Shown piece after piece: positions 2,031 to 43,391 of a stretch of DNA of 48,081 nucleotides (positions are counted from its first letter, which is position 1; the number at the start of each line of letters is the position of its first letter). Position numbers and translations under genes: made by a program. Source of the DNA: Escherichia phage AN_ECEAS; sequence record PP944860.1; one strand, given 5' to 3'. The notes beneath the pieces were generated by a model that did no database searches, was not told the DNA's origin, and worked only from the letters and a program-made list of their open reading frames with translations.

Positions 2031-3491
2031 ATGGAGTTAGTTGAAATCGCTTCAAATAGCTGCGAAGGACTTGAGGCAAAAGCGAAGGCTTTAATGCCAT
2101 CATTTCAGCCTTATGACAGTATTATTCTGGTAGGTGACTTGCCAGTCAGGTGTTTAATGGCGTCTGGAACAGACCTAAGCATTACTGATATCAAGTTCCT
2201 AACTTTCGGTAGCCGAGCAAGGCTAATCACTGAAATTAACAAGATGATTGCTGATGGTTGGGAGATTTTCGGCGAGCCAAAGGCTGACGCAAACAGATTT
2301 GGCACAATTATGACCAAAGGCTTTCAGGGCGCTAAGGGTACGGCTGGTGTCGCTGGCCCGCAAGGTCCGCAGGGCGTTCAGGGTTTGCAGGGTCCAGAAG
2401 GCCCGCAAGGTCCAAAAGGTAATGATGGCGATGATGGTTCTCAAGGTGAGCGAGGACCACAAGGTCCGCAGGGTATCCGTGGCGAGCAAGGCGTTCAAGG
2501 TCCGCAGGGCATCCAGGGGCCAATCGGCTTAACTGGTGATACAGGTCAGCAGGGGCCAGCTGGTCCAACTGGTGCTACTGGTCCTCGTGGACCTCAAGGT
2601 GTGCAAGGTGAGGCTGGTCCTGCTGGCGCTACAGGTCTGGAATTTAAAGGCGCATGGGCTCCAGGTATCGAATACAAAGCAAACGACGCAGTGGCTTATA
2701 ACGGTTCAACATGGTTTGCTGTGACTGGAAATACAGACGAGACACCAGGGACGGGAACATCATGGCAGGTAATGGCATCACAAGGTTCTCGCGGACCAGC
2801 CGGACCAGAAGGCCCGCAAGGTGATGTTGGCCCGCAAGGTGAGCAAGGAATTCAAGGACCAATCGGAGCAACTGGACCATCTGGACCTCAGGGCGCAAAA
2901 GGTGATACAGGAGACACTGGACCAGCAGGACCAGAAGGACCACAAGGTTTAACTGGACCAGCCGGACCGCAAGGCATTCAAGGACCAGCTGGTGTTCGAG
3001 GTGCTACTGGTGCAACTGGTGTAAACGGAGCTAATGGCGCCACAGGACCGCAAGGGCCAGCTGGACCAAATGGTGATTCAGGTCTTAATTACACATATCA
3101 GAAATGGTCAAACGTAGCAAATGGCGTTGGGTATGTAACAATCCCCGGGATGCCTAATACACAAATAGGAGTTAACAGGAATTCTGCCGGAGCAATTGTG
3201 TACACTCTCTATAGTACTGGTGGAACCGTTAGGTATCTTGATTGGCGCGCTGAGATACCATCATATGATACAAATGCAATAACCACGGCTGCTGGCACGG
3301 CGACAACACCAAGCTCTGCTGGTGTAATAGCAACGATGAATACCGTTTTATATAATGGGTTAAGATCAGTCAAATTTATAATTAAGGATTGGGGCGCATC
3401 AAGGATTGCTGTAATTGAATGTTACCAACACGGAAGGGCTAACTCAGACGCGAGGCCTGTTACTATCGAGATGCGCTCATTCTCTTACTAA
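2031..3491 (+). CDS. collagen-like (Gly-X-Y) fibre protein with a CBM5/12-like insert between two triple-helix tracts
   Basis: Two long uninterrupted G-X-Y tracts (approx 2319-2636 and 2784-3083); ATG 2031 has RBS AGGAG whereas ATG 1998 has none; extended -10 upstream. Confidence 0.7.
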
Positions 3492-4903: not shown

Positions 4904-5299
4904 ATGAACGAACAAGCATTGGCCTTTATGAGGTCACTAGTTCCAGCTTTGCGTAACGTGCAAGATGAAACGCTGGATGTATGGCTTGAACTTGCTAAAC
5001 TTTACATCTGCACCAGTAAATTTGGTGATGATGCTTACAAGGCGCTTGCACTGTACACTATGCACATCGCCTTTCTTGATGGTGCGCTTAAGCAGAATGA
5101 GTCTTTGGATGATTATGGCAAGAAGGTGACTAGTTACTCCCTGAGTGGTGAATTTTCCATTAGCTATGAATCAACATCTCAATCGCAGTCAGCACTAACA
5201 GCAACTCCGTGGGGCCGACTGTACTGGAATCTTCTACGTAAGAAAGGTGGTGGATTTGGCTTAATTACGTCCACTTGGCGTGGGTGTGGTTGCCTATGA
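4904..5299 (+). CDS. putative head-tail adaptor protein
   Basis: ORF with RBS GGAGG before ATG 4904; position between capsid and tail genes. Confidence 0.3.
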   Translation: MNEQALAFMRSLVPALRNVQDETLDVWLELAKLYICTSKFGDDAYKALALYTMHIAFLDGALKQNESLDDYGKKVTSYSLSGEFSISYESTSQSQSALTATPWGRLYWNLLRKKGGGFGLITSTWRGCGCL

Positions 5300-5667
5300 A
5301 TTACTCACAAGTCGAATCATTGATGCGAACTGGCATCAATATCTTTAGTGATGGTGACGGAATCTTTACCATGGAAACTGGCAAAGGCGGTGTAGAAATT
5401 GTTGATGGCGTAGAAGTTCCTGTATCTGGTGGCACTGCATTAATCAAGGGGCTGGTGAGGGGAATTAAAACCAGGGATATTGATGGTGAGTATATCCAGT
5501 TTGGTGATAAGCGAGGAATCTTTACTTCTGAAGTTCCAATCTTACAGGGGTGCAGGATTATTGTGGACGATGAAACTTACACGGTAGTTGACCCGAGGCC
5601 AGTTAAACCAACAGGTACTGTAGTCGCATATAGGCCAATCCTAAGGAGGGTTGCTACTTATGGCTAA
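5296..5667 (+). CDS. putative head closure/connector protein
   Basis: ATG 5296 overlaps upstream stop (ATGA); position. Confidence 0.3.
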   Translation: MNYSQVESLMRTGINIFSDGDGIFTMETGKGGVEIVDGVEVPVSGGTALIKGLVRGIKTRDIDGEYIQFGDKRGIFTSEVPILQGCRIIVDDETYTVVDPRPVKPTGTVVAYRPILRRVATYG

Positions 5668-6103
5668 GTTTGGTGGAAACCTCGAGGTTCAGACTTTCTA
5701 CAAAGACATTAACGGATGGATTGCGTTCGTTGAAGATTCCGTGAAGGATGTTGTTTATCTAACTGTTGAGAAGGCGTCTGAGGATATTGTAAAGCTATCC
5801 CCGGTTGACACAGGAAGATTTAAAGGCAACTGGCAGGTTACTGCGAACGCCCCAGCACAACAGGCACTTATCGACAGGGATGTTGCTGGCTCAGATACAA
5901 TAGCAAGGCTAAAGAGACAGGCGAGAGCTGTAGCTAATGCACAATCTACCAAGGTAATTTTCATATCTAACGTCGTTGATTATAGCGTTCATCTTGAGTA
6001 TGGTTCTTCATTGCAAGCGCCAAACGGGGTTCTTGGAGTGGTTGAGACAAGGTTAGGCAGGTATTTCTCTGAAGCGGTCGAGGAATCAAGGAGAAAACGA
6101 TAA
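5660..6103 (+). CDS. putative tail completion protein
   Basis: ATG 5660 with RBS AAGGAGG; position. Confidence 0.3.
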   Translation: MAKFGGNLEVQTFYKDINGWIAFVEDSVKDVVYLTVEKASEDIVKLSPVDTGRFKGNWQVTANAPAQQALIDRDVAGSDTIARLKRQARAVANAQSTKVIFISNVVDYSVHLEYGSSLQAPNGVLGVVETRLGRYFSEAVEESRRKR

Positions 6104-6501
6104 TGCAATATGAACTATCTTTAGCAGCAAGGAGGTTTGTAACTGATTTGGTTAAAACATTTCCAGTCAGGTATCCAATCTCCTACGAAAACGTAGCCTT
6201 TTCTCCACCAAGAAATGGTGGGATGTGGCTGAAATACGACTATACTGAGGCTGATACAGTAACCTATAGCTTGAGTCGAAAGTGCAAATACTATGTAGGC
6301 ATGGTTCAGTTATCTGTCTTTTTCTCCCCTGGTGATGGCGTTGATAAAGCGAGGAAACTAGCTAATCAATTGGCAGAATCAATGCTTGATGGTACAATGC
6401 TTGACACAGGCTACATTTATGAGGGCGGAGTAGTTCACCCGGTAGTGAAGTCAAAATCTGGCTGGTTTATTCCAGTTCGTTTCTATGTTCGTCTTGACTA
6501 A
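6103..6501 (+). CDS. putative tail terminator protein
   Basis: Translationally coupled ORF immediately upstream of the major tail gene. Confidence 0.3.
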   Translation: MQYELSLAARRFVTDLVKTFPVRYPISYENVAFSPPRNGGMWLKYDYTEADTVTYSLSRKCKYYVGMVQLSVFFSPGDGVDKARKLANQLAESMLDGTMLDTGYIYEGGVVHPVVKSKSGWFIPVRFYVRLD

Positions 6502-6512
6502 AAGGAAAATAT

Positions 6513-7172
6513 ATGGCCCATCTCAGCAATGGCACCCAGGTGTTCGTAGAAGGCACCAGGGGTGATACTATCGACGTAACGGCAATTTCCAACGCTGTTA
6601 CTCCTGTTTTAACTTTGTCCAGCGTGGCAGACATTGCACGCGGTGACTACCTGTTGTTTACCAGCTCTGCTTCAACTCTGCTTGCTGATAAGCAAGTTCG
6701 CGTTACCGCTGTAACTGGTTCCACTGTAACTGTTGAAGGTATTGATACCTCCAGCACCACTAAGTTCCCTGCTGGTTTAACTGGTGAAGTGGTTAAGATT
6801 CTTAGCTGGTTTGAGGTTCCTTGCGTTCAAGACGTATCCACTGACGGCGGCGAGCAGCAGTTCGTTAACTTCCAGTGTTTGTCCGATAACCGTGAGCAAC
6901 AGATTCCAACTTACAAGTCCGCGGTAACCAACACCTATACGTTCGCGCACGAATACACCAACCCGGTATATCCGATTCTGCGTAACTATGATGAGTCTGG
7001 CCAGGTTGTTGCAATTCGCCTGTTCGTACCTCGAGCCAGTGAAATGCGTCTTCAGTCAGGAACTATCGCTTTCAACGACACCCCGAGCATTGGTGTTAAC
7101 GAAATCGAAACGGTATCCATCGCTGTTTCTATTCGCGGAAGGCTAAGTTCCGTAGCTTCTGAGCTAGCATAA
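6513..7172 (+). CDS. putative major tail protein
   Basis: 219 aa, RBS AAAAGGAAA, strong terminator downstream, precedes chaperone and tape-measure genes. Confidence 0.5.
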   Translation: MAHLSNGTQVFVEGTRGDTIDVTAISNAVTPVLTLSSVADIARGDYLLFTSSASTLLADKQVRVTAVTGSTVTVEGIDTSSTTKFPAGLTGEVVKILSWFEVPCVQDVSTDGGEQQFVNFQCLSDNREQQIPTYKSAVTNTYTFAHEYTNPVYPILRNYDESGQVVAIRLFVPRASEMRLQSGTIAFNDTPSIGVNEIETVSIAVSIRGRLSSVASELA

Positions 7173-13737: not shown

Positions 13738-13787
13738 TTTAGTGTAGAATGGCACAAATGGTCAAAACAAATACGGAGCTATGTGAT

Positions 13788-16700
13788 ATGGCACAAGATA
13801 TTAAGATTTATGGGAGTAAGGGCGGTAGCCAGAAACAGAGACAGCCTGTTGAGCAACCTGACAACCTGGTATCTGTAAACAAGGTTAAAGTACTTTTGGC
13901 GGTAGCGGATGGTGAGGTTGATAGTTCTTTTTCACTTCGTGATTTGTACCTGGCTGATGTTCCCGTTCAGAATGCAGATGGTACTTTAAACTACGAAGGA
14001 GTCACGGCTGAATTTAGGCCGGGAACTCAAGATCAGGATTATATTCCTGGACTTGACGGTGCTAACTCGGAGGTTCAGGTTAGCCGAGAAATCACCAACA
14101 GCACTCCTTACATTATTGCCGTTAACAACAGTCAGCTATCGGCAATTAGGGTTAAGTTGTTTTGGCCAAGACTGATTAGCCAAGAAAGTAATGGCGACCT
14201 TAATGGCACTACGTGCGAGTACGCGATTGACTTATCTGTTGATGGCGCAACTTACACTGAATACACGCGCGGCGTAGCTAATGGCAAGACAACTAGCGGA
14301 TACGACAGAAGTATCAGGGTTAACCTTCCAGCGGAGTTCTCTAGCGCACTGGTAAGGATTCGAAAGATTACGGCAGATTCAGAAAGTTCTACGCTGGTTA
14401 ACGACATGCAAATTACGACCTATCAGGAAGTAATTGATGCTAAATTCCGCTACCCACTTACAGCGCTGGTTTACGTTGAGTTCAGTTCTGACCTCTTCCC
14501 TAACGGAATCCCGACGATTTCAATCAAGAAGAAGTGGAAGTTGATTCGCGTTCCAACTAACTACAACCCAGAGACAAGGACTTACAGCGGAACCTGGAAC
14601 GGCACCTTTAAGATGGCGTATTCCAATAACCCGGCGTGGGTTCTTTACGACTTGGTGACGAATCAGCGTTACGGACTTGACCAGCGAGAGCTTGGCATTA
14701 CTATTGATAAGTGGGGTCTGTATGAGGCGGCGCAATTCTGTGACCAGATGGTTCCAGATGGTAAGGGTGGAGTTGAGCCGCGCTACCTGTGTGATGTTGT
14801 CATTCAGCAGAAAGTTGAAGCATATCAGGTAATCCGTGATATTTGCTCTATCTTCCGTGGGCTGACATTCTATGACGGCGAGCAGATAGGGATTGTTGTC
14901 GATAAGCCGCGTCAACCATCGTACGTATTCACCAATGACAACGTTGTTGATGGATTGTTCAACCGTACATTTGGTAGCGATAAGTCACTTTACACGGTTG
15001 CCAACGTTCAGTTTGATGACGTTGAAAACTCATACCAACAGGATGTTGAGCCAGTATTCGAGTTAGAGGCAACAAGGCGTTTTGGTTACAACCCGGTCGA
15101 CCTTACAGCTATTGGATGTACTCGCAGGAGTGAGGCAAACCGCCGCGGGCGCTGGTTATTAAAGACGAACATTCGCAGCGAGACTATTAGTTTCACTACT
15201 GGTCTGGAAGGTATGATTCCAATGATTGGTGAGGTTATTGCAGTTAATGACCAGGCATGGTCTAGCAACTACACCCTTAACCTTTCTGGTCGTATCGAGT
15301 CAGTAAGTGGGTTGCAAGTTTTTGTGCCATTTAAGATTGATGCTACTGCTGGCGACAGGATTCTAATAAACAAGCCTGATGGAATGCCAGAGTACAGGAC
15401 CATTGCATCTGTATCTGAAGATGGTATGACGCTGCAACTTAATACAGCGTTTAGCTTTACTCCTCAGCCTGACACAGTATTTGCGATTGATAAGGAAAAT
15501 CTTGCTCTTCAGCAATATGTTGTGACCGGGATTCAAAAAGCAGACAGCGATGGAGACGATGCGTTCGGTTACAGCATTACGGCAGTCGAGTACGACCCGA
15601 ATAAATACGACGAAATTGATTACGGCGTAAACATTCAGGATAGGCCATCGTCAATCGTTGAACCTGACACGCTACTTGCCCCAGAAAATGTTCAGGTGAG
15701 CAGCTACAGCAAGGTTGTGCAGGGTTTATCAGTTGAAACAATGGTAATCACCTGGGACAAAGTTCAGTACGCCAAGACTTACACGGTACAGTGGCGTAAG
15801 GAGAACGGAAACTGGATTAACGTACCGCGCACAGCAAACACAGAAGTTGATATTGAAGGTATTTATGCTGGTATTTATCAGGTTCGCGTGAGGGCTGTTT
15901 CTGATACTGAAAACGTATCCGCATGGTCTGACATTGTTTCAGCAAGCCTAACTGGTAAAATTGGAACGCCGTCTGAGCCTACGGTAATCACAGCTTCAGA
16001 TGATGAAATATTCGGCATTAGGGTTAAGTGGGGATTTCCTGAAAACTCAGCCGATACGTCATACACTGAATTGCAGCAAGTAGCCGACAATGGTGATGGT
16101 ACTTACTCACCAGAGAACGCCAGTTTGTTAACGCTAGTTCCTTACCCGGGTTACGAGTATTGGCACACTACATTGCCGGCAGGAAAGGTTATCTGGTACA
16201 GGGCGCGACTGATTGACAAGATTGGTAACGTCTCACCATGGACTGATTTTGTAAGGGGTATGGCAAGCGATGATGTGTCGTCAATCATTGGTGATATTAA
16301 GGTTGATATAGAAAACTCAGATGGGTTCAAGTATCTCCAACAGAATGCCATTGAGTCAAACGGAGCTATTCAGGCGCAAGCGGAATCAATAATTGAGAAC
16401 GCCCTGGCTAATGATGGTGACGTGCGTAGAATGACGAAGGAAAACGGCAAGAGGAAGGCCGAATTTGTTCAGGCTGTGAATCTTATCGCCGATGAAGAAA
16501 GGGCTCGCGTAGAGGCTCTGACGCAGCTTAAAGCGCAGATTGATGATGAGATTGTGGCTTCGTTGACAAGGATTGATACGGCGCTAGCGGAAGAAACGCA
16601 AGCAAGGACCACTGCGGACACTGCTTTATCTGCAAGGCTCGGTGAGAATGAAGCTGCTTTAAATGAGAAGCTGGATACTTACGTTACAGCTGATTCAATT

Positions 16701-17174
16701 GGTGCGCAGTACGGCATTAAGCTGGGTCTTACTTACAATGGGGTTGAGTACAATTCAGGGATGAGCATGGAACTAACCGGATCTGGTGGCAATGTTCGCA
16801 GTCAGGTCATATTTGATGCTAACAGGTTCGCAATCAGTAATGGGGTTAGTTCTGGCTCCGGTCAGTGGTCATTGCCTTTCGTGGTTGAGAATAATCAGGT
16901 ATTCATTCAAAGCGCAGTGATTCAGGATGGTTCAATCACTAACGCGAAGATTGGTAACCGGATTCAATCTAATAACTACGTGGCTGGTTCTCAGGGTTGG
17001 GCCATTGATAAGTCAGGCAGTGCGGAACTTAACAATGCAACTGTAAGGGGTAGTCTGTACGCAAGTAACGGCAACTTTGCGTTTAACGGAACCAACAACA
17101 CTGTTCAGATTAACAATAATGGAATTACAGTTAATTTACCGAATGGTGGAAGGGTTGTAGTTGGAGTGTGGTAA
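13788..17174 (+). CDS. central tail fibre/host specificity protein (lambda J-like)
   Basis: ~1130 aa ORF after the I-like gene; ATG 13788 has RBS ACGGAG (alternative ATG 13749 lacks one). Confidence 0.7.
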   Translation: MAQDIKIYGSKGGSQKQRQPVEQPDNLVSVNKVKVLLAVADGEVDSSFSLRDLYLADVPVQNADGTLNYEGVTAEFRPGTQDQDYIPGLDGANSEVQVSREITNSTPYIIAVNNSQLSAIRVKLFWPRLISQESNGDLNGTTCEYAIDLSVDGATYTEYTRGVANGKTTSGYDRSIRVNLPAEFSSALVRIRKITADSESSTLVNDMQITTYQEVIDAKFRYPLTALVYVEFSSDLFPNGIPTISIKKKWKLIRVPTNYNPETRTYSGTWNGTFKMAYSNNPAWVLYDLVTNQRYGLDQRELGITIDKWGLYEAAQFCDQMVPDGKGGVEPRYLCDVVIQQKVEAYQVIRDICSIFRGLTFYDGEQIGIVVDKPRQPSYVFTNDNVVDGLFNRTFGSDKSLYTVANVQFDDVENSYQQDVEPVFELEATRRFGYNPVDLTAIGCTRRSEANRRGRWLLKTNIRSETISFTTGLEGMIPMIGEVIAVNDQAWSSNYTLNLSGRIESVSGLQVFVPFKIDATAGDRILINKPDGMPEYRTIASVSEDGMTLQLNTAFSFTPQPDTVFAIDKENLALQQYVVTGIQKADSDGDDAFGYSITAVEYDPNKYDEIDYGVNIQDRPSSIVEPDTLLAPENVQVSSYSKVVQGLSVETMVITWDKVQYAKTYTVQWRKENGNWINVPRTANTEVDIEGIYAGIYQVRVRAVSDTENVSAWSDIVSASLTGKIGTPSEPTVITASDDEIFGIRVKWGFPENSADTSYTELQQVADNGDGTYSPENASLLTLVPYPGYEYWHTTLPAGKVIWYRARLIDKIGNVSPWTDFVRGMASDDVSSIIGDIKVDIENSDGFKYLQQNAIESNGAIQAQAESIIENALANDGDVRRMTKENGKRKAEFVQAVNLIADEERARVEALTQLKAQIDDEIVASLTRIDTALAEETQARTTADTALSARLGENEAALNEKLDTYVTADSIGAQYGIKLGLTYNGVEYNSGMSMELTGSGGNVRSQVIFDANRFAISNGVSSGSGQWSLPFVVENNQVFIQSAVIQDGSITNAKIGNRIQSNNYVAGSQGWAIDKSGSAELNNATVRGSLYASNGNFAFNGTNNTVQINNNGITVNLPNGGRVVVGVW

Positions 17175-17181
17175 ATGATTA

Positions 17182-17205
17182 GGCCCCTTTCGGGGCCTTT
17201 TCTTT
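17182..17205. terminator. terminator between convergent J-like gene and minus-strand gene
   Basis: GGCCCC-TTTC-GGGGCC stem-loop plus T-run. Confidence 0.7.
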
Positions 17206-18167
17206 TAGTAGAAGTTTGGTATGAATGGTAGAGCCATTGATATGTTTGTGTCGAATGGGAATTGGGCTCCCGTCTGCGTTGAGTAGTTCCCTATCACAGT
17301 GCCTGGAACTGCCCTTACGGCACCACCAGACATGCATATTCCCTTGTACCTTAAGTTGTTATACCCTCCAGTAACTCTTGTTGTAGCGCCGCACCTGAGC
17401 AGTGGGAAGAACCCTCCATTTATTGACTGGAAACCGTTAGTCATTTGTATAAAGCCACCAAGCACAAACGGTCGCCTAACGCTGGAAAAGACAATCTGTC
17501 CAGAACTATTAGACATTGTGAGTCCTGGGCCAGCTACTGGAGGGTCATTCCTGAATATCACTAACTGTACGTAAGTACTTGCTGCAACGTCATCTATGCC
17601 GCTGTAGTTTATGTTGCGGCACCAAATTGTATTACCGTCGCTCTCCAGAGAAACGTTTGGGTTATCCCATTTACCAAATGGAATCCCACTGACTGGTAGT
17701 GAGGCGGCGCCGTTAACCTGTATTCCACCAACCCATGCCGCAGACATTAACCGCGAATTGCTTGAAATTGCCAAAAAGTCAGTTGAGTTCTCAACCAGTA
17801 TTCCTGGGCTTGATGAAGACGAGGCTGGGAGTATTTCAAAGCAATTTCCAGCAAAGTCAATTATACGACCTCTTGCGCCATTGAAGTCACTAAGCGTTAT
17901 CCTGCCAGTTCCGTCATTTACCTTCTGGAACCCGTTCATATAATAAACTTCAGGTACAACATCATAAGCGTCAACGTGCACAGCCTTTGTTGGAAGGCAG
18001 AATGCTGTTGATCCTGGGGACATGGTTAAACCAAAATCCCATGATGATGCTGGCGTCGAAAGTCCATTGGTATTTATTGAGCCAGTCACAGCGGGCGCTC
18101 TTAATCCTGCCGTTATTTCCATAGGTGGCCTTCCGTCGTTGAGGTCTATCAATATACCCTGTGGCAT
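17205..18167 (-). CDS. hypothetical protein co-transcribed with lipoprotein (possible tail fibre/receptor-binding accessory)
   Basis: ATG 18167 with RBS AAGGAG; start overlaps lipoprotein stop (TAATG). Confidence 0.4.
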   Translation of the reverse strand: MPQGILIDLNDGRPPMEITAGLRAPAVTGSINTNGLSTPASSWDFGLTMSPGSTAFCLPTKAVHVDAYDVVPEVYYMNGFQKVNDGTGRITLSDFNGARGRIIDFAGNCFEILPASSSSSPGILVENSTDFLAISSNSRLMSAAWVGGIQVNGAASLPVSGIPFGKWDNPNVSLESDGNTIWCRNINYSGIDDVAASTYVQLVIFRNDPPVAGPGLTMSNSSGQIVFSSVRRPFVLGGFIQMTNGFQSINGGFFPLLRCGATTRVTGGYNNLRYKGICMSGGAVRAVPGTVIGNYSTQTGAQFPFDTNISMALPFIPNFY

Positions 18168-18412
18168 TATTTCCACTCCTTAGACCCGTGATCTGCAACT
18201 GAACCGCCATAACCTCCACCAGCCTTGCTCTCAATACCAGCGTAGCGCACATCAACTTCACCAGCCGGTACAATCACGCCACCTTTCCATTTAGCCACGC
18301 ATACACCGTTTGCTTTCGTTGCACACCATCCGTCAGGACGCGGAGCAGAAGAGCAACCCACCATTATGATTGCTGCTGCTGCGATGATTGAAAGTTTGAT
18401 TAAGTTAGTCAT
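18167..18412 (-). CDS. small lipoprotein (Cor-like superinfection-exclusion candidate)
   Basis: N-terminus [20 protein letters not shown] with lipobox-like MVGC; RBS AAGGAA; own dyad-motif promoter. Confidence 0.6.
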
Positions 18413-18473
18413 TTTCGTATTCCTTGTGAGGTTCGTTTCGATGGAGTAATCATACATCATCTATAATCTTTGT

Positions 18474-18492
18474 CTTTAGCAATTCGTGCTAT
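18474..18492 (-). promoter_or_regulatory. dyad-motif promoter element (minus strand)
   Basis: Reverse complement of ATAGCACGAATTGCTAAAG; TATGAT and CATCGAAAC follow on minus strand before lipoprotein gene. Confidence 0.6.
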
Positions 18493-18493
18493 T

Positions 18494-18507
18494 GGTTACG
18501 CGTAACC
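18494..18507. repeat. 14-bp perfect palindrome GGTTACGCGTAACC adjacent to leftward promoter
   Basis: Self-complementary sequence 2 bp from dyad motif 18474-18492. Confidence 0.6.
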
Positions 18508-18544
18508 GATGTAACTCGATGTATACCATATGCATCCGCGGGAA

Positions 18545-18860
18545 ATCGTATACACCTATTTACGCCTCGATACGCCATAGTTACATTAAAATATCTATAT
18601 ATATCAACCCTTTACTCTTATTATTATTATTATATATATTACTGTGTATATCATGTAACTACTATTCTGTAGTGTTCCGGTTATAATTTTTATATCATGT
18701 GATTTTATACAGTATTGCGAGGCACCCATACCTATGCACCATCCGCCAAGATCGGTATACACGATATACGCACCATTTACATTGAGCTATAGCTGGGCTC
18801 AGGCAGTGAAAAACGTAACCAATAGAAATGTCTACACGTAGTTACGGATTTATACGCGTA
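18545..18860. repeat. control region A: AT-rich (ATT)n block, 10-bp palindrome AGCTATAGCT, conserved CGTAACCAAT and ACGCGTATA boxes; paralogous to region B
   Basis: Blocks 18591-18650 and 18781-18860 align by eye with 38701-38760 and 38891-38970. Confidence 0.7.
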
Positions 18861-18957
18861 TACTTGATTAATTAATCGGTGATACCAATTGGACTGTGTG
18901 TCTTGCGTGCGGCATCATTACATCATCGAAATCACGCAACCAAAGAGAGATAAAGAA

Positions 18958-19152
18958 ATGCCATACTTCATCATCAAAGAGAAAAACAACGCACTGTTCG
19001 ACGACTGCTACTTTGGTGGCCCGGCTGGATACACAATTCATAAATCTGAAGCCGATCGATTCGAGACTAAGGAAGAAGCTAAGTCTATTCTGACCGGATA
19101 TTTCACTGAGGAAGATTTGAAAGCCGTTAAGATTGTTAAAGTTAAGGATTGA
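18958..19152 (+). CDS. hypothetical early protein
   Basis: ATG 18958 with RBS AAAGAGAGA; first gene right of control region A. Confidence 0.5.
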   Translation: MPYFIIKEKNNALFDDCYFGGPAGYTIHKSEADRFETKEEAKSILTGYFTEEDLKAVKIVKVKD

Positions 19153-19155
19153 ATC

Positions 19156-20127
19156 ATGACATTCAAAGTTTATTTAAATAACGAACTTAGCAACGAAGCC
19201 TATCACGAAGAGCAGGACCACATCTCTGGCTCTTCACTGGCTGAGATTCTTGCTACCTCACCAGCTAAATGGAAGTTTAAGCAGCGCAATAACTCTAGCG
19301 CAGCACTTAAGTTTGGCACACTAAGTCACTGCATGATGCTAGAGCGCGAGGTGTTTGACTCAACATACATGCGAGCTACTGACTTTGACGAAGTGGAAGG
19401 ATTGATTACTAGCCAAACGGCTTTATCCGCAGCGCTTAAAAAAGTTGGAGTTTCAGGCACGTCAGGGAAGGGTTATAACGAGCTTGTAGAGATGATGTAT
19501 AAGTGTGGTGAGGATTGGCCTGTTAAATGGTTAATTGAGCAGCAGGAGAGCGCTCATGCGCTAATTAGTGGCAAAGAGCTAGTTGCTGCGAAAGATTACG
19601 ATAAAGTAATTCAAATGCGAGAGGTTCTAACTAATATTCCGGCATATGATTCGGTAATTAATTCACCATCAGCGCAGAAAGAACTATCAATATTTGGTGA
19701 GATTCTCGGTTGTGGTGTTAAGGTTCGTCTTGACCATGTGGATGTTGTTGATGGTATTGTCTACATTACTGACTATAAAACTACGTCAGACGCAAGCCCG
19801 AGGGGGTTTGGGAAGTCAGCTTATGACCATGGATACCTGTGCAAGATGGCACTTCAGCGAGATCTGTTTGTGAAAGCCTTTAATGAGAAACGTAAGGTTG
19901 TAGTTCGCCTTCTGGCGCAGGAGAAAACAGAGCCTTACTTACCAATGAGCTACACTCTTACGGATGAACAGCTTAGAATTGGACGTTTACAATATTGTGA
20001 GGCACTGTCAATTTACAAGAATTGCAAGGAAACAAACATGTGGCCCGGATACTCAAACGGAGCAACGGAACAGGAGTTAATGATACCTGAATGGGTAATT
20101 AACAGTTATAAGGATATTATAAAGTGA
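19156..20127 (+). CDS. putative PD-(D/E)XK-family exonuclease (recombination partner of ERF)
   Basis: Motif ITDYKT consistent with D-x-K nuclease core; position upstream of ERF/SSB. Confidence 0.45.
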   Translation: MTFKVYLNNELSNEAYHEEQDHISGSSLAEILATSPAKWKFKQRNNSSAALKFGTLSHCMMLEREVFDSTYMRATDFDEVEGLITSQTALSAALKKVGVSGTSGKGYNELVEMMYKCGEDWPVKWLIEQQESAHALISGKELVAAKDYDKVIQMREVLTNIPAYDSVINSPSAQKELSIFGEILGCGVKVRLDHVDVVDGIVYITDYKTTSDASPRGFGKSAYDHGYLCKMALQRDLFVKAFNEKRKVVVRLLAQEKTEPYLPMSYTLTDEQLRIGRLQYCEALSIYKNCKETNMWPGYSNGATEQELMIPEWVINSYKDIIK

Positions 20128-20608
20128 TTGATAAATTTAATGATATCTTTAGATATGATGGTGAAAAGCTGTACTATAAAAACTGGGTAAACGGTAGAAG
20201 TAAGTCTCTTGGACTAGAGGCTGGTAGCAAACAGAATGGTTACTTGAAAGTTACAATTGGCGGCAGAAATTATAAAGTTCATAGAATTATATGGGAAATG
20301 GTTAATGGTGAAATACCTGATGGAATGGAATAGATCACATAAATCACGTAAAGGATGATAATAGGATTGAGAATCTAAGGCTGGTAACTCACAAGGAAAA
20401 CTCAAGAAATAGGAAAAAGAGGTCAGATAACTCTTCAGCAACACAGGGCGTTTCTCTGCATAAGATTACAAGGAAGTGGCAATCTTATTGCTCTGATAAT
20501 GATGGAAAAATTATGTACCTTGGATTATTTGAGGATATTAATGATGCTATTGATGCTAGGGTTAAGTTCGCCTCACAATGTGACTTCCATGAGAATCATG
20601 GTAAATAG
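20124..20608 (+). pseudogene. HNH homing endonuclease, frameshifted (N-terminal part in frame 0 to 20333, HNH core in -1 frame 20321-20608)
   Basis: Frame 0 ends ...IPDGME*; -1 frame continues IDHINHVKDDNRIENLRLV..., matching the intact paralogue at 36850..37347. Confidence 0.5.
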
Positions 20609-20623
20609 CAATAATTGCTAAAG
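20605..20623 (+). promoter_or_regulatory. dyad-motif promoter element, variant ATAGCAATAATTGCTAAAG
   Basis: Overlaps HNH pseudogene stop; upstream of ERF gene. Confidence 0.45.
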
Positions 20624-20678
20624 ACAAATCTTATAGGTGGGGTATCATTACCCCATAGAAACTAAAGAGAGATAGGTA

Positions 20679-21329
20679 ATGAAAACTTCAGAACAAAACA
20701 AGCAGGTATTGAAAGCGTTATTTGAGGCTAAATCAAAGTTTGCAAAGGCTGAAAAGTCAAAGCAGAACTCGCACCTCAAGAACAAGTACGCGACCCTTGA
20801 AGACGTTTTGGCGGCTGTAGAGCCAGGACTCGCAGATAGCGGCCTTGTCATGTTTCAAGGCATGATTGATGATGAAGCCACAACTAGAATTAAGGTTGAA
20901 ACAACTGTCTATCATGCAGAATCTGGAGAGTGGGTCAGCTTCCTGACAATCGTCCCAATCAGCAAGCAAGATGCTCAAGGTTATGGGTCATCACTTACAT
21001 ACGCTCGCCGTTACGCAATCACAGCGGCGTTAGGTTTAAGCCAGGCAGATGATGATGGTCAGTTAGCAGTTAAAGGCATCAACTCATTTAAGAAAGATTT
21101 AGCTAAGTGCAACACTCTTGATGACCTGCGAGATGTATACAAAGAAGCTAAGCAGTCTCTTGATTCAGCTGGTTGGCTGGTGATTGAACCTCACATTATT
21201 GAGCGTAAGGCAGAGATTCAGGCTAATGCAACTAACGGCTTCAATCCTGCAAAACCTAAACAGGTTGCACAAAAGTCTGTTCAAGAAGAAAAAGTTGAAG
21301 TACAATCTCAAGAAATCGACACATTCTAA
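20679..21329 (+). CDS. ERF-family single-strand annealing protein
   Basis: Motif GSSLTYARRYAITAALGL typical of ERF; adjacent to SSB. Confidence 0.7.
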   Translation: MKTSEQNKQVLKALFEAKSKFAKAEKSKQNSHLKNKYATLEDVLAAVEPGLADSGLVMFQGMIDDEATTRIKVETTVYHAESGEWVSFLTIVPISKQDAQGYGSSLTYARRYAITAALGLSQADDDGQLAVKGINSFKKDLAKCNTLDDLRDVYKEAKQSLDSAGWLVIEPHIIERKAEIQANATNGFNPAKPKQVAQKSVQEEKVEVQSQEIDTF

Positions 21330-21335
21330 TTTAAC

Positions 21336-21349
21336 GGGGCTGCGGCCCC
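21336..21349 (+). other. GC stem-loop without T-tract between ERF and SSB genes
   Basis: GGGGC-TGCG-GCCCC hairpin followed by AACATT. Confidence 0.35.
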
Positions 21350-21369
21350 AACATTAAGAGAGAAAGAAA

Positions 21370-21807
21370 ATGAGTCATGTAATTACTGGTGTTATCCGTC
21401 GCGCTCCGTTCACCAAAGAAGGTCAGAATGCTAACGGAACCTGGAAAATGTATGCAGTTGATTTAAGCGAGCGCTACAAGGACAAGGATGGTCAGGTACA
21501 TTACAGTAACTATCGAGCTGTCTTCTTCGCAAAAGAATCAATGCTTGCATGGTACGATGAGGCTTTTCAGGAAGGAAAAATTGTTAGCGTAAGCTGCGAA
21601 ACTCTTGCTGTAGATGTTCGTGATAAAGATGGTAAGACGTATGTAACCATTAACATGAACAACCCGCGACTTGAGTTTAGTCAGCGCGGTGATGGTATTC
21701 AGCAACAACAGCGCCAGCAGCCACAGCAGCAACAAAGCCAACAACCACAGCAGAACCATCAGCAACCTAAGCAGCAGCAGAACTTCGACGATGACATCCC
21801 ATTCTGA
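21370..21807 (+). CDS. ssb: single-stranded DNA-binding protein
   Basis: 145 aa, Gln/Pro-rich linker and acidic C-terminal tail ...DDDIPF. Confidence 0.8.
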   Translation: MSHVITGVIRRAPFTKEGQNANGTWKMYAVDLSERYKDKDGQVHYSNYRAVFFAKESMLAWYDEAFQEGKIVSVSCETLAVDVRDKDGKTYVTINMNNPRLEFSQRGDGIQQQQRQQPQQQQSQQPQQNHQQPKQQQNFDDDIPF

Positions 21808-24395: not shown

Positions 24396-24414
24396 ATAGC
24401 ACGAATTGCTAAAG
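24396..24414 (+). promoter_or_regulatory. dyad-motif element with no + strand gene downstream (lies in leader of the minus-strand tailspike gene)
   Basis: Perfect ATAGCACGAATTGCTAAAG; a degenerate reverse copy at about 24462-24480. Confidence 0.35.
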
Positions 24415-25441: not shown

Positions 25442-25915
25442 TTACTCTTTAGCTTTTCGTGCTGCTTCGTTAGCGGCCTTAATCTTGCGCCATGATCGAC
25501 ACTCTGGCTTGGTGGCTAGCTCTGCTTCAGTAACTACGCGAAGCATATGACGCTTCTTACATCGAAGTGTTAGCGGCTTACCGTTTCCGTCGAATTGCAG
25601 GTCTGGTCGGCAGAACGTAGCTCGAAATCCTTCCTTATTTCTCTTATACGCATTGTGAGCTTTCTGCGCTCCTCGAGCCGAAATCATCCCGCGATCAAAC
25701 CATTGCTCTACAGTCTGGTGAGATACGTTTAACTGCTTTGCGATGTTCGCCTTTGTTCCATAGAAATCAAGAACCATCTCCAGGCGAGCACGTAGCCCAG
25801 CCTTTACCTCATCTTTCAATACGTAGTAGCCTGACGGTCGTTTGCGTTGCTTCTTGTCTTGTGTGCGTACCGTTCCGTTATTGCCGTTAATAGTTCGTTT
25901 GTCAATTTCACACAT
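25442..25915 (-). CDS. HTH DNA-binding protein (candidate transcription regulator)
   Basis: Basic protein with HTH-like segment IAKQLNVSHQTVEQWF; its RBS region abuts dyad motif 25928-25946. Confidence 0.4.
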   Translation of the reverse strand: MCEIDKRTINGNNGTVRTQDKKQRKRPSGYYVLKDEVKAGLRARLEMVLDFYGTKANIAKQLNVSHQTVEQWFDRGMISARGAQKAHNAYKRNKEGFRATFCRPDLQFDGNGKPLTLRCKKRHMLRVVTEAELATKPECRSWRKIKAANEAARKAKE

Positions 25916-43315: not shown

Positions 43316-43391
43316 GTTCTGCTGGCGTAACAGGATAACGCAAAGACCTCCTAAGTCTTAGTTACTGGTTCGAGTCCAGTGCGGAACACCA
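43316..43391 (+). tRNA. tRNA-Arg (anticodon CCU), CCA encoded
   Basis: Hand-folded cloverleaf: 7-bp acceptor stem, U8, D-arm GCGT/ACGC, anticodon stem AAGAC/GTCTT with loop CTCCTAA, T-arm ACTGG-TTCGAGT-CCAGT, discriminator A. Confidence 0.8.

Follow-up and report, generated by a model that had tools for sequence, protein, structure and literature searches.

Loci that encode receptor-specific receptor-binding proteins (RBPs) together with exclusion proteins have been mapped directly downstream of gpJ, the same position as that of the gene pair described here, and the type of locus matches the receptor 'without exception' (Maffei et al. 2021, PMC8594841). Dependence on LptD was shown for the Bas01, Bas02, Bas18 and Bas25 groups (PMC8594841). 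In phage Rtp (Braunvirinae) the two genes are those of Rtp44 and Rtp45, and Rtp45 has been solved on the periplasmic face of LptDE, in an LptDE-LptM complex (PDB 9RPS; PMC12685063). In that PNAS paper a Cys30-Cys38 disulfide is described along with strand residues 30-35 that pair with LptD residues 318-323, AlphaFold 3 is reported to mispredict the protein, and in the parts consulted the role of Rtp45 in exclusion is derived from the structure rather than from an in vivo exclusion assay (PMC12685063).

Phage Oekolampad (Bas18, Dhillonvirus) carries an RBP, gp25, and a superinfection-exclusion (SE) protein, gp26, and the complex of its RBP with LptDE is available from cryo-EM (PDB 9RPT/9RPW/9RQI). 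OzMSK/MSK of the Rogue1 group has gp38 (RBP) and gp39 (lipoprotein); OzMSK does not infect two lptD loop-deletion mutants and the RBPs of the Rogue1 group have been modelled as the same fold (PMC13035648). The same logic, a dedicated tail-tip RBP accompanied by a small lipoprotein of the outer membrane that faces the periplasm and inactivates the receptor used by the phage itself, is found in T5 pb5 (Oad)/Llp and in T1 Cor, where the receptor is FhuA, a TonB-dependent transporter, whereas the receptor of the phage studied here is probably LptD. Llp is described as acting by long-range allostery and Rtp45 by steric loop displacement (PMC12685063).

A two-gene unit beyond the gpJ-like gene

The window analyzed in this work is the whole 48,081-nucleotide stretch from Escherichia phage AN_ECEAS (record PP944860.1), to which Escherichia phage ES (OR466728.1, Drexlerviridae) is 100% identical; we refer to the phage as ES in what follows. 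An earlier note on this DNA had described a leftward two-gene unit, opposite to the tail genes and coupled through TAATG, and both open reading frames as well as the one-base overlap were recovered in our analysis. On the minus strand an open reading frame running from 18412 to 18167 specifies a lipoprotein of 81 aa and a second, from 18167 to 17205, a partner of 320 aa, with the TAA stop (18169-18167) and the ATG (18167-18165) having one A in common. The Shine-Dalgarno AAGGAG of the RBP gene, read from the sequence on the minus strand (18176..18181, that is 18181-18176), lies within the last lipoprotein codons. The same one-base overlap is annotated in six relatives (Rtp, OzMSK, AKS96, 2725-N35, GaoY1-9D and IMM-001); in Oekolampad, a phage of another group, 2 nt separate the genes, whereas those of ES overlap.

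The RBP and lipoprotein genes are located downstream of, and convergent with, the gene for a gpJ-like central tail-tip protein of 1141 aa (13749..17174, plus strand). This protein has Pfam matches to FNIII-A_GpJ, Phage-tail_3 and Phage_Tail_Tip, belongs to PHROG 31 ('central tail fiber J') and has PDB matches to J-like tail-tip proteins of known structure, among them 9l9p_S (1172 aa) and 23gd_D (J-like gp24). Its Phage_Tail_Tip domain, C-terminal at aa 971-1109, is presumed to be the docking platform of the RBP; the gpJ-like gene itself provides context for the module and stands outside its two genes. The gpJ gene ends at 17174 and the convergent RBP gene at 17205, with the lipoprotein gene directly upstream of the RBP gene, and this layout of gpJ, RBP and lipoprotein is also found in Rtp, OzMSK, AKS96 and Oekolampad. 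In Rtp the likeness extends to gene order, orientation, the one-base overlap after gpJ and a dyad promoter upstream. Between the convergent stops of the gpJ and RBP genes a terminator scan located a G+C-rich hairpin, AGGCCCCTTTCGGGGCCT (17181..17198, assigned to no strand), that resembles a terminator, with a run of T on the plus strand and, on the minus strand, a weaker tail; in the AKS96 record the equivalent site is annotated as terminators on both strands.

The two genes form the host-recognition module of a T1-like phage, of a type already described, in which an LptD-binding tail-tip protein is combined with an LptD-blocking lipoprotein. Overall, the explanation that we consider best, and in which we have high confidence, is that of an LptD-type terminal-receptor module of a T1-like siphovirus that is transcribed as one operon from a dyad-bearing promoter. 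The evidence for phage ES consists of its genes and of sequence comparison, with the experiments supplied by characterised relatives.

The predicted dyad-bearing promoter

Upstream of the lipoprotein gene a dyad promoter had been proposed at 18474-18492. The dyad is real, TAGCA-CGAAT-TGCTA (TAGCACGAATTGCTA) at 18491..18477 (18477..18491, minus strand), but it should not be equated with the promoter, whose core lies downstream of it; it is an operator-like element centred ~42 nt upstream of the predicted start. Nor is it particular to the two-gene unit, being common to ~12 promoters in the genome. The window contains seven exact copies and 23 matches with at most three mismatches, against 1.4 expected, and about 12 of the window copies are found at exactly 22 nt upstream of a -10-like TAnnnT hexamer in which A2 and T6, hallmarks of sigma-70, are invariant. 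Twelve copies occur in the Rtp genome, and at the lipoprotein locus the dyad is conserved in eight phages. Across 34 sites the consensus comprises the dyad TAGCACGAATTGCTA, 22 nt, TAnnnT, the block CATCGAAAC and a start codon ~30 nt further downstream, and the site at 18491..18435 conforms to it as a cassette of the type seen in Braunvirinae/Rogunavirinae-like phages, a putative Rtp52 regulon. A scan of viral contigs for the dyad promoter cassette gave six loci only.

The promoter scan assigns the -10 hexamer to TATGAT (18454-18449), followed by the block TACTCCATCGAAAC, the two together spanning 18435..18454 on the minus strand, with transcription predicted to start near 18442. The block is kept at the lipoprotein locus in eight phages and, both in the window and in Rtp, follows the majority of the dyad copies. 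Sixteen nucleotides upstream of the -10 there is a weak -35-like AAGACA (18471..18476, that is 18476-18471, minus strand; promoter scan, 9/12 matches), and six of the eight aligned phages have AAGAC(A/T) here, the exceptions being P817 (AAGCTC) and OzMSK (AACACT). TTGCTA, the right half of the dyad, was also considered as the -35 and rejected, as its 22-nt spacer to the conserved -10 is too long for sigma-70; in the AKS96 record an unusual promoter, 'TTGACA(N23)TATAAT', is annotated in the same intergenic region. We prefer an activator site in combination with the weak AAGACA -35 over TTGCTA as the -35, with the dyad probably the activator site, centred near -42. The cassette stays directly upstream of the lipoprotein gene even in OzMSK and IMM-001, in which the DNA farther upstream has given way to a methylase gene; in OzMSK this DNA methylase gene sits just upstream of the promoter cassette, whereas ES has an AT-rich intergenic region there.

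It is conceivable that the dyad acts in RNA instead, as a boxB-like element with a 5-bp stem and a 5-nt loop that functions in antitermination or processing of read-through transcripts. Such a role would be in keeping with the 15-nt hairpin geometry and the fixed orientation to the downstream gene, with the many copies that are positioned right after the preceding gene and hence would be transcribed by read-through, and with flanks of the -10 hexamer that are often mutually complementary. We judge it unlikely. Where the arms depart from the consensus, pairing is broken in 16 of 18 cases and kept in only two, and arm changes that go uncompensated in this way point to a DNA site rather than to an RNA hairpin. 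In addition, conservation is much stronger in the left half, TAGCAC, than in the right, the dyad keeps a constant 22-nt distance to a hexamer with the A2 and T6 of sigma-70, and an Rfam search of the whole window matched only a tRNA, with no family at the dyad.

For the dyad as an activator site in DNA, the preferred reading, a candidate regulator is encoded at 25442..25915 (minus strand), a 157-aa helix-turn-helix protein that is a homologue of Rtp52 (89% identity) and of T1 gp23. The Rtp record lists rtp52 as 'transcriptional regulator', with the helix-turn-helix at aa 53-74, while Pfam matches of Cro/CI type at aa 42-82 of the 157-aa protein are all below threshold. We infer that the Rtp52-like protein may bind the dyad. 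Searching the literature for Rtp52 and for the dyad motif sequence returned nothing relevant; the Rtp genome paper of Wietzorrek et al. (2006) reportedly proposed Rtp52 sites. Class-II promoters of the Mu Mor/C type employ a small phage helix-turn-helix protein and have a dyad that adjoins or overlaps a weak -35, with its centre ~42-43 nt upstream of the start. Like the ES dyad, that of Mu Mor/C is repeated at several phage promoters, a likeness by analogy only.

More tentatively, a cassette of ~65 bp, composed of the dyad near -42, a -10 that is often in a covarying inverted repeat and the block CATCGAAAC, may place ~12 units under an Rtp52-type activator and serve at the same time as dispersed homology that aids module swaps. 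If true, cassette homology would help swaps between phages such as the methylase insertion or that of the RBP body. Complementarity of the -10 flanks is frequent among the cassettes.

The perfect palindrome that had been noted beside the promoter, GGTTACGCGTAACC (14 bp, 18494..18507, no strand), is present and is indeed perfect, but the significance attached to it does not hold up. Three perfect 14-bp palindromes occur in the window, where random sequences of matching composition give 3.5 +/- 2.0, and GGTTACGCGTAACC is found there as a single copy. In relatives the site reads GGTTACGTGTATAC or GGTTACGCGTATAT; it is non-palindromic in AKS96, Rtp, 2725-N35 and GaoY1-9D, and the palindrome is absent from the locus in OzMSK and IMM-001. 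In view of the single copy, the chance-level frequency and the lack of conservation we rejected it as an operator, and it is probably not functional as a palindrome. The right half, CGTAACCGAT, is conserved in AKS96, and a 12-nt inverted copy, CGTAACCAATAG, is located at 18814-18825, 313 nt from the palindrome.

The receptor-binding protein and its lipoprotein

Pfam and homology identify the 320-aa protein (17205..18167, minus strand) as an LptD-type RBP of the DUF6453 family (PF20051). The DUF6453 match is full length (E 1.5e-137, 458.2 bits against a cut-off of 25), with residues 4-297 aligned on positions 1-291 of the 291 in the model. The protein is 92.8% identical to the 'receptor binding protein' of OzMSK, 87.5% to those of the Rogue1-group phages AHS24 and UDF157lw, 41.5% to that of VogelGryff and 39.9% to Rtp44, from which it differs in the body, only about 40% identical. 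It also matches PDB 9rpt_C, the Oekolampad RBP on LptDE, over residues 2-320 (E 1.5e-66; 43% identity over the full length); the Oekolampad proteins are of the same family and occupy the same position after a J-like gene, with the lipoproteins 37% identical. The N-terminus, GILIDLNDGRPxMEITAGLRAP, is conserved and is presumed to attach the protein to the tail tip. Contents of 11.9% Gly, 10.0% Ser and 7.5% Asn bear out the description of the protein as rich in these residues, and of the two roles suggested for it in the earlier note receptor binding is upheld by the OzMSK (93%) and Oekolampad (43%) homologues, with fibre assembly abandoned.

Identity to the RBPs for which the evidence is most direct (the Oekolampad structure and the Rtp44/Bas01 group) is only about 40-43%, and binding at the level of loops could therefore differ. 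RBP bodies diverge fast, and nucleotide identity between ES and Rtp drops to 40-60% across the RBP body only, against 78-91% in the lipoprotein gene and promoter, so that one might envisage a different outer-membrane receptor for the protein, or another mode of binding to LptD. We regard this as improbable. The 92.8% identity is to the RBP of a phage, OzMSK, that is LptD-dependent by experiment, and the differences between the two proteins are scattered, without clustering; the cognate lipoprotein is a close homologue of Rtp45, which binds LptD; and there is the match 'without exception' of locus type to receptor (Maffei et al., PMC8594841). From these comparisons LptD would be the receptor of phage ES.

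The second protein of the pair is a putative superinfection-exclusion outer-membrane lipoprotein, an 81-aa precursor (18167..18412, minus strand) that Pfam and homology place in the Rtp45 family, PF24052 (E 4.9e-39; 132.6 bits, the cut-off being 27; residues 1-80 aligned with positions 1-80 of the model). It matches PDB 9rps_D, Rtp45 with LptDE-LptM (E 1.4e-36), and is about 78-83% identical to Rtp45 (77.8% by tblastn) and about 85% to the OzMSK/MSK lipoprotein (85.2% to the phage Msk protein by tblastn). As judged by eye and hydropathy only, there is a type II signal peptide, in line with the original assignment as a lipoprotein: MTNLIK is followed by a hydrophobic core (Kyte-Doolittle 12-residue mean 2.86) and by the lipobox IMVG-C20-S21, with a residue other than Asp (Ser) at +2. 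C20, C30 and C38 are conserved in the alignment and shared with Rtp45, C30 and C38 being kept in ES, Rtp45, OzMSK, Oekolampad and SU10. Conservation extends to the motifs RPDGWCA, VPAGEVDxRY and SKEW. Residues 30-35 read CATKAN in ES versus CATQAS in Rtp45, and near the C-terminus ES has a 5-residue insertion, SKAGG, relative to Rtp45.

In GenBank the lipoprotein starts at 18460 (97 aa). The start at 18412 chosen by the earlier reader is the better one, as both the Pfam model and Rtp45 align from residue 1; the ATG at 18460 falls inside the predicted promoter spacer. A Shine-Dalgarno AAGGA (18421..18425, minus strand) is located 8 nt upstream of the ATG at 18412, and AAGGAATAC is kept in most of the eight aligned phages. 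By homology the protein is expected to be lipidated at Cys20 and to exclude LptD-dependent phages.

A receptor-blocking lipoprotein had been suspected from the outset, by analogy with Cor. The blocker role stands, through Rtp45 homology and PF24052; the analogy with Cor and FhuA does not. That the lipoprotein is a FhuA blocker of the Cor/Llp type, with ES using FhuA as do T1, phi80 and T5, would agree with the position and size of T1 cor, likewise leftward just after the gpJ region, and with a similar signal peptide and lipobox, yet it strikes us as very improbable. With T1 Cor the BLASTP alignment covers nothing but the signal peptide (residues 6-25); on PF24052 T1 Cor reaches 17.7 bits, under the cut-off of 27, as compared to 132.6 for the ES protein; and the Cys pattern of the ES lipoprotein differs from that of Cor. 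A phmmer search of the PDB with E up to 10 returned Rtp45 and noise only, with no Llp chain, and homology to Llp or to mature Cor was not detected by BLASTP, PF24052 or PDB phmmer; membership of either family was rejected on these grounds. T1, moreover, has two different genes (ST32, ST31) where the DUF6453 gene would be, and the closest characterised relatives of ES are all LptD users. Finally, it is scarcely credible that the 320-aa protein should be a fibre-assembly chaperone, or a non-structural 'membrane protein' or moron, in place of an RBP carried by the virion. The PHROG 1265 label ('membrane protein', moron category), repeated in several RefSeq records, is inherited annotation without experiment behind it, and hydropathy finds no transmembrane-grade hydrophobic stretch in the protein (maximum Kyte-Doolittle 19-residue mean 0.97).

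Proposed mechanism and implications

With the LptD-type module as the preferred explanation, infection by ES would proceed as follows. The RBP would use its conserved N-terminus to dock onto the tail-tip domain at the C-terminal end of the gpJ-like protein, and the distal loops of the RBP would enter the lumen of the outer-membrane LPS translocon LptD-LptE, an insertion that would trigger irreversible adsorption and DNA ejection. The lipoprotein would be exported, lipidated at Cys20 and, with Ser at +2, directed to the outer membrane, into its inner leaflet. Like Rtp45, it may attach there to LptD from the periplasmic side, squeezed in between LptE and LptM. A hairpin of the lipoprotein would be pushed up through the LptD lumen, displacing extracellular loop 4, so that the RBP could no longer bind. 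The outcome would be that LptD-dependent phages are excluded from infected cells and that progeny are not wasted on cell debris. Both genes would be expressed as one operon whose core promoter is a weak one of the sigma-70 type (AAGACA-16 nt-TATGAT) with its start near 18442, with the Rtp52-like helix-turn-helix protein most likely binding the dyad as a class-II-type activator.

Conceptually there is no novelty here, as work published in 2021-2025 had already described this type of module, its receptor and how both proteins act at the structural level. The GenBank record is poorly annotated, and both genes in it can now be given new annotations; possible uses include phage cocktails that avoid two LptD-sharing phages, resistant production strains (lptD loop deletions) and RBP-swap engineering. 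With LptD and not FhuA as the receptor, an exclusion test on phages that depend on FhuA would come out negative, but for the wrong reason. For phage ES the analysis amounts to an in-silico call, according to which the terminal receptor would be the essential LPS translocon LptD and the Rtp45-type lipoprotein should exclude other LptD-dependent phages.

Organization and relatives of the leftward two-gene unit

Positions 17000-18800 of the window are 100% identical to Escherichia phage ES (OR466728.1, Drexlerviridae; megablast), and the leftward two-ORF unit is as the earlier note had drawn it, in coordinates, one-base overlap and the Gly/Ser/Asn richness of the second product. The first ORF (minus strand, 18412..18167) encodes an 81-aa lipoprotein with a basic N-terminus, a hydrophobic core and the lipobox IMVG-C20 with Ser at +2. 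The second (minus strand, 18167..17205), whose ATG shares one A with the TAA stop of the first and which is preceded by an AAGGAG ribosome-binding site of its own, encodes a 320-aa protein (11.9% Gly, 10.0% Ser, 7.5% Asn) in which no membrane-spanning stretch was found. The pair converges on a 1141-aa gpJ-like tail-tip gene (13749..17174; FNIII-A_GpJ, Phage-tail_3 and C-terminal Phage_Tail_Tip domains in Pfam), with a G+C-rich hairpin (17181-17198) between the convergent stops. The lipoprotein start at 18412, the one favored in the earlier note, is better than the GenBank start at 18460 (97 aa) because the Pfam model and the phage Rtp lipoprotein Rtp45 align from residue 1, while the ATG at 18460 lies within the predicted promoter.

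The 81-aa protein scores 132.6 bits (cut-off 27) on PF24052, 'Phage lipoprotein family', and its sole PDB match is 9RPS chain D (E 1.4e-36), which is Rtp45 in complex with LptDE-LptM (Dunbar et al. 2025, PMC12685063). Identity is 77.8% to Rtp45, 85.2% to the MSK/OzMSK protein (tblastn) and 37% to the Oekolampad lipoprotein (MAFFT alignment); Cys20, the predicted acylation site, and the pair Cys30/Cys38, disulfide-bonded in solved Rtp45 (PMC12685063), are conserved in the alignment.

The 320-aa protein matches DUF6453 end to end (E 1.5e-137) and has homologues in 423 of 50,697 phage records by translated search, including OzMSK (92.8% identity; gene annotated 'receptor binding protein ... LptD'), the Rogue1-group phages AHS24 and UDF157lw (87.5%), VogelGryff (Bas25; 41.5%) and Rtp (Rtp44; 39.9%). 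Its sole PDB match, over residues 2-320 (E 1.5e-66), is chain C of 9RPT/9RPW/9RQI, the receptor-binding protein (RBP) of Oekolampad on Shigella LptDE (PMC12685063), to which it is 43% identical over the full length. The most conserved part is the N-terminus, GILIDxNDGRPxMEITAGLRAP, and this part alone (residues 1-52) is common to ES and a Citrobacter phage protein, a pattern that would fit an adaptor role toward the tail tip.

The ES record is poorly annotated, and window 19156-21807 is affected: a PDDEXK exonuclease (DUF3799) is labeled 'capsid maturation protease', the ORF matching Rtp Erf in size and position 'head morphogenesis protein' and that matching Rtp SSB 'terminase small subunit'. 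In the same record gpJ and the RBP are 'hypothetical' and the lipoprotein carries a 16-codon N-terminal extension. A tRNA-Arg gene (anticodon CCU, plus strand, 43316-43391) lies among small ORFs.

Receptor and exclusion

Small siphoviruses have receptor-specific 'bona fide RBP loci' directly 3' of gpJ, accompanied by cognate exclusion proteins, and one allele type tracks LptD, the outer-membrane LPS translocon protein (Maffei et al. 2021, PMC8594841). Two lptD loop-deletion strains are not infected by OzMSK, and models of the OzMSK and Rogue1 RBPs show two beta-sandwiches of lectin-like type and a tip that carries loops (Black et al. 2025, PMC13035648). The RBP goes deep into the lumen of open-state LptDE; Rtp45 binds from the periplasmic side, lodged between LptE and LptM, and its hairpin reaches up through the lumen, pushing extracellular loop 4 as much as 20 Å out of place, a change that does not permit the RBP to bind (Dunbar et al. 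2025, PMC12685063). Because both ES proteins are close homologues of these characterized partners, the 320-aa protein would be an LptD-binding RBP and the lipoprotein an Rtp45-like LptD blocker; for ES itself we infer receptor use, lipidation and exclusion from sequence. The module is a close member of a type for which both the receptor and the structural mechanism have been reported before.

The earlier note had proposed a Cor-type receptor blocker beside a receptor-binding or fibre-assembly partner. The feature is real and the proposed function essentially right, but the family and the receptor are different, given the PF24052/Rtp45 homology and the LptD-type relatives. T1 Cor aligns with the lipoprotein over the signal peptide only (BLASTP) and scores below the PF24052 threshold, and no T5 Llp chain was detected among PDB matches of the 81-aa protein at E up to 10. 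In T1, unlike ES, two unrelated genes occupy the place of the DUF6453 gene. Since neither family nor receptor is that of Cor and FhuA, the suggested test against FhuA-dependent phages would be uninformative.

The predicted dyad promoter and its genome-wide cassette

The dyad TAGCA-CGAAT-TGCTA (minus strand, 18491..18477), which the earlier note had placed at the promoter of the pair, is borne out by its recurrence: 7 copies in the window are exact, and allowing ≤3 mismatches gives 23 matches where 1.4 would be expected, far from random. A promoter scan places the core promoter, AAGACA-16 nt-TATGAT, at 18476..18449 (minus strand), and from its position transcription is predicted to start near 18442, so that the dyad centre would lie at about -42, a class-II activator position, as in the Mor/C promoters of phage Mu. 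At this locus 8 phages keep the dyad, the -10 and the CATCGAAAC block but differ in spacer sequence, and these elements persist in OzMSK and IMM-001 despite a methylase gene that replaces the upstream DNA. Among dyad arm changes 16 of 18 break pairing, and are thus uncompensated, which argues for a DNA site and against an RNA hairpin. A 157-aa HTH protein (25442..25915) is 89% identical to Rtp52, annotated 'transcriptional regulator' in the Rtp record and reportedly proposed in the Rtp genome paper to bind 10 inverted repeats of this kind.

In the window, 12 dyads with ≤2 mismatches share the orientation of the downstream gene (starts at 18491, 20606, 24397, 29565, 29819, 33387, 36852, 37810, 40164, 40840, 42186 and 46536), and Rtp also has 12. 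For most of them the gap to a downstream TATAGT/TATAAT/TATGAT-type hexamer is exactly 22 nt, and most cassettes continue with TACyCCATCGAAAC, a ribosome-binding site and the start codon, the genome-wide order being aaaTAGCACGAATTGCTAaa, N20, TATAGT-like hexamer, TACyCCATCGAAAC(GAAAC). In each genome, about 4 sites in 10 have bases directly 5' and directly 3' of the -10 hexamer that are complementary to one another, with sequences that differ between sites (for example GAGTTGgtgTATTATCAACTC at site 29565). When own- and cross-partner duplex energies were compared, none of 5000 permutations over all sites reached the observed value; the figure was 68 of 20,000 when the sites came only from ES and 563 of 20,000 when they came only from Rtp. 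The putative hairpin would hold the -10 hexamer in its loop.

One conserved copy (24397-24411, plus strand), between the lateral tail-fibre and primase genes, both on the minus strand, differs in architecture from the others. No -10 hexamer stands at the distance typical of the cassettes, and a terminator-like hairpin (AAAAAACCTCCC..GGGAGGTT) comes next; equivalents occur in Rtp (L011 33763) and in the sequences L015 (8010) and L014 (9447), and a partial inverted dyad (TAGCAATTCG) follows most copies of this type.

The perfect palindrome GGTTACGCGTAACC, to which the earlier note had also drawn attention, is present by the dyad. The window, however, holds 3 perfect 14-bp palindromes in all against 3.5 ± 2.0 expected, and this one occurs there once and is not palindromic at the same site in relatives; we treat it as chance. 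The divergent intergenic region around it (18413-18957, 545 bp, AT-rich with 31-41% GC) may be a control region or origin. It has GTATAC and GTATAT motifs in several places, direct repeats ATACGCCATAGTTACAT and ATACGCACCATTTACAT at a distance of 196 nt, and a perfect inverted repeat of 12 nt, CTATTGGTTACG / CGTAACCAATAG, whose arms lie 313 nt apart. Upstream of the rightward gene at 18958 there is a ATCATTACATCATCGAAA block as in the leftward operon, in mirror orientation and without the dyad.

Divergence of the module and its occurrence in podoviruses

A DNA methyltransferase gene, in the same orientation as the lipoprotein-RBP operon, is inserted just upstream of the dyad cassette in OzMSK (L003 501-1193) and IMM-001 (L010 1782-2504) and is absent from that spot in ES, Rtp and AKS96.

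Nucleotide identity between ES and Rtp (L004) is ∼70-76% in gpJ and 78-91% over the lipoprotein gene, promoter and intergenic region, with a drop to 40-60% confined to the RBP body (17200-18100); the gpJ end, lipoprotein gene and promoter that flank this body range together over 65-91%. The extracellular binder therefore changes, by divergence or exchange, at a much higher rate than the periplasmic blocker, and it does so independently of that partner.

The same trio of Phage_Tail_Tip, DUF6453 and PF24052 is found in Gordonclarkvirinae/Kuravirus podoviruses, at AnnaHegner Bas87 (L019) 4977-6975 and SU10 (L020) 2947-3225. The tail-needle protein ends in a Phage_Tail_Tip domain (E 7.6e-26), as gpJ does, and directly after it comes a protein labeled 'membrane protein' that matches DUF6453 (E 4.5e-25) and shares 26% identity with the ES RBP; by gene order this should be gp19 of SU10. 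The PF24052 lipoprotein SU10_0104 (E 2.6e-36, Cys pattern conserved) is encoded in another part of the genome, among small ORFs of the early region. Because the trio is present, gp19 goes unmentioned in the SU10 virion-structure paper and the BASEL-2025 text draws no link between these kuraviruses and LptD, LptD may be a terminal receptor of kuraviruses that has gone unrecognised.
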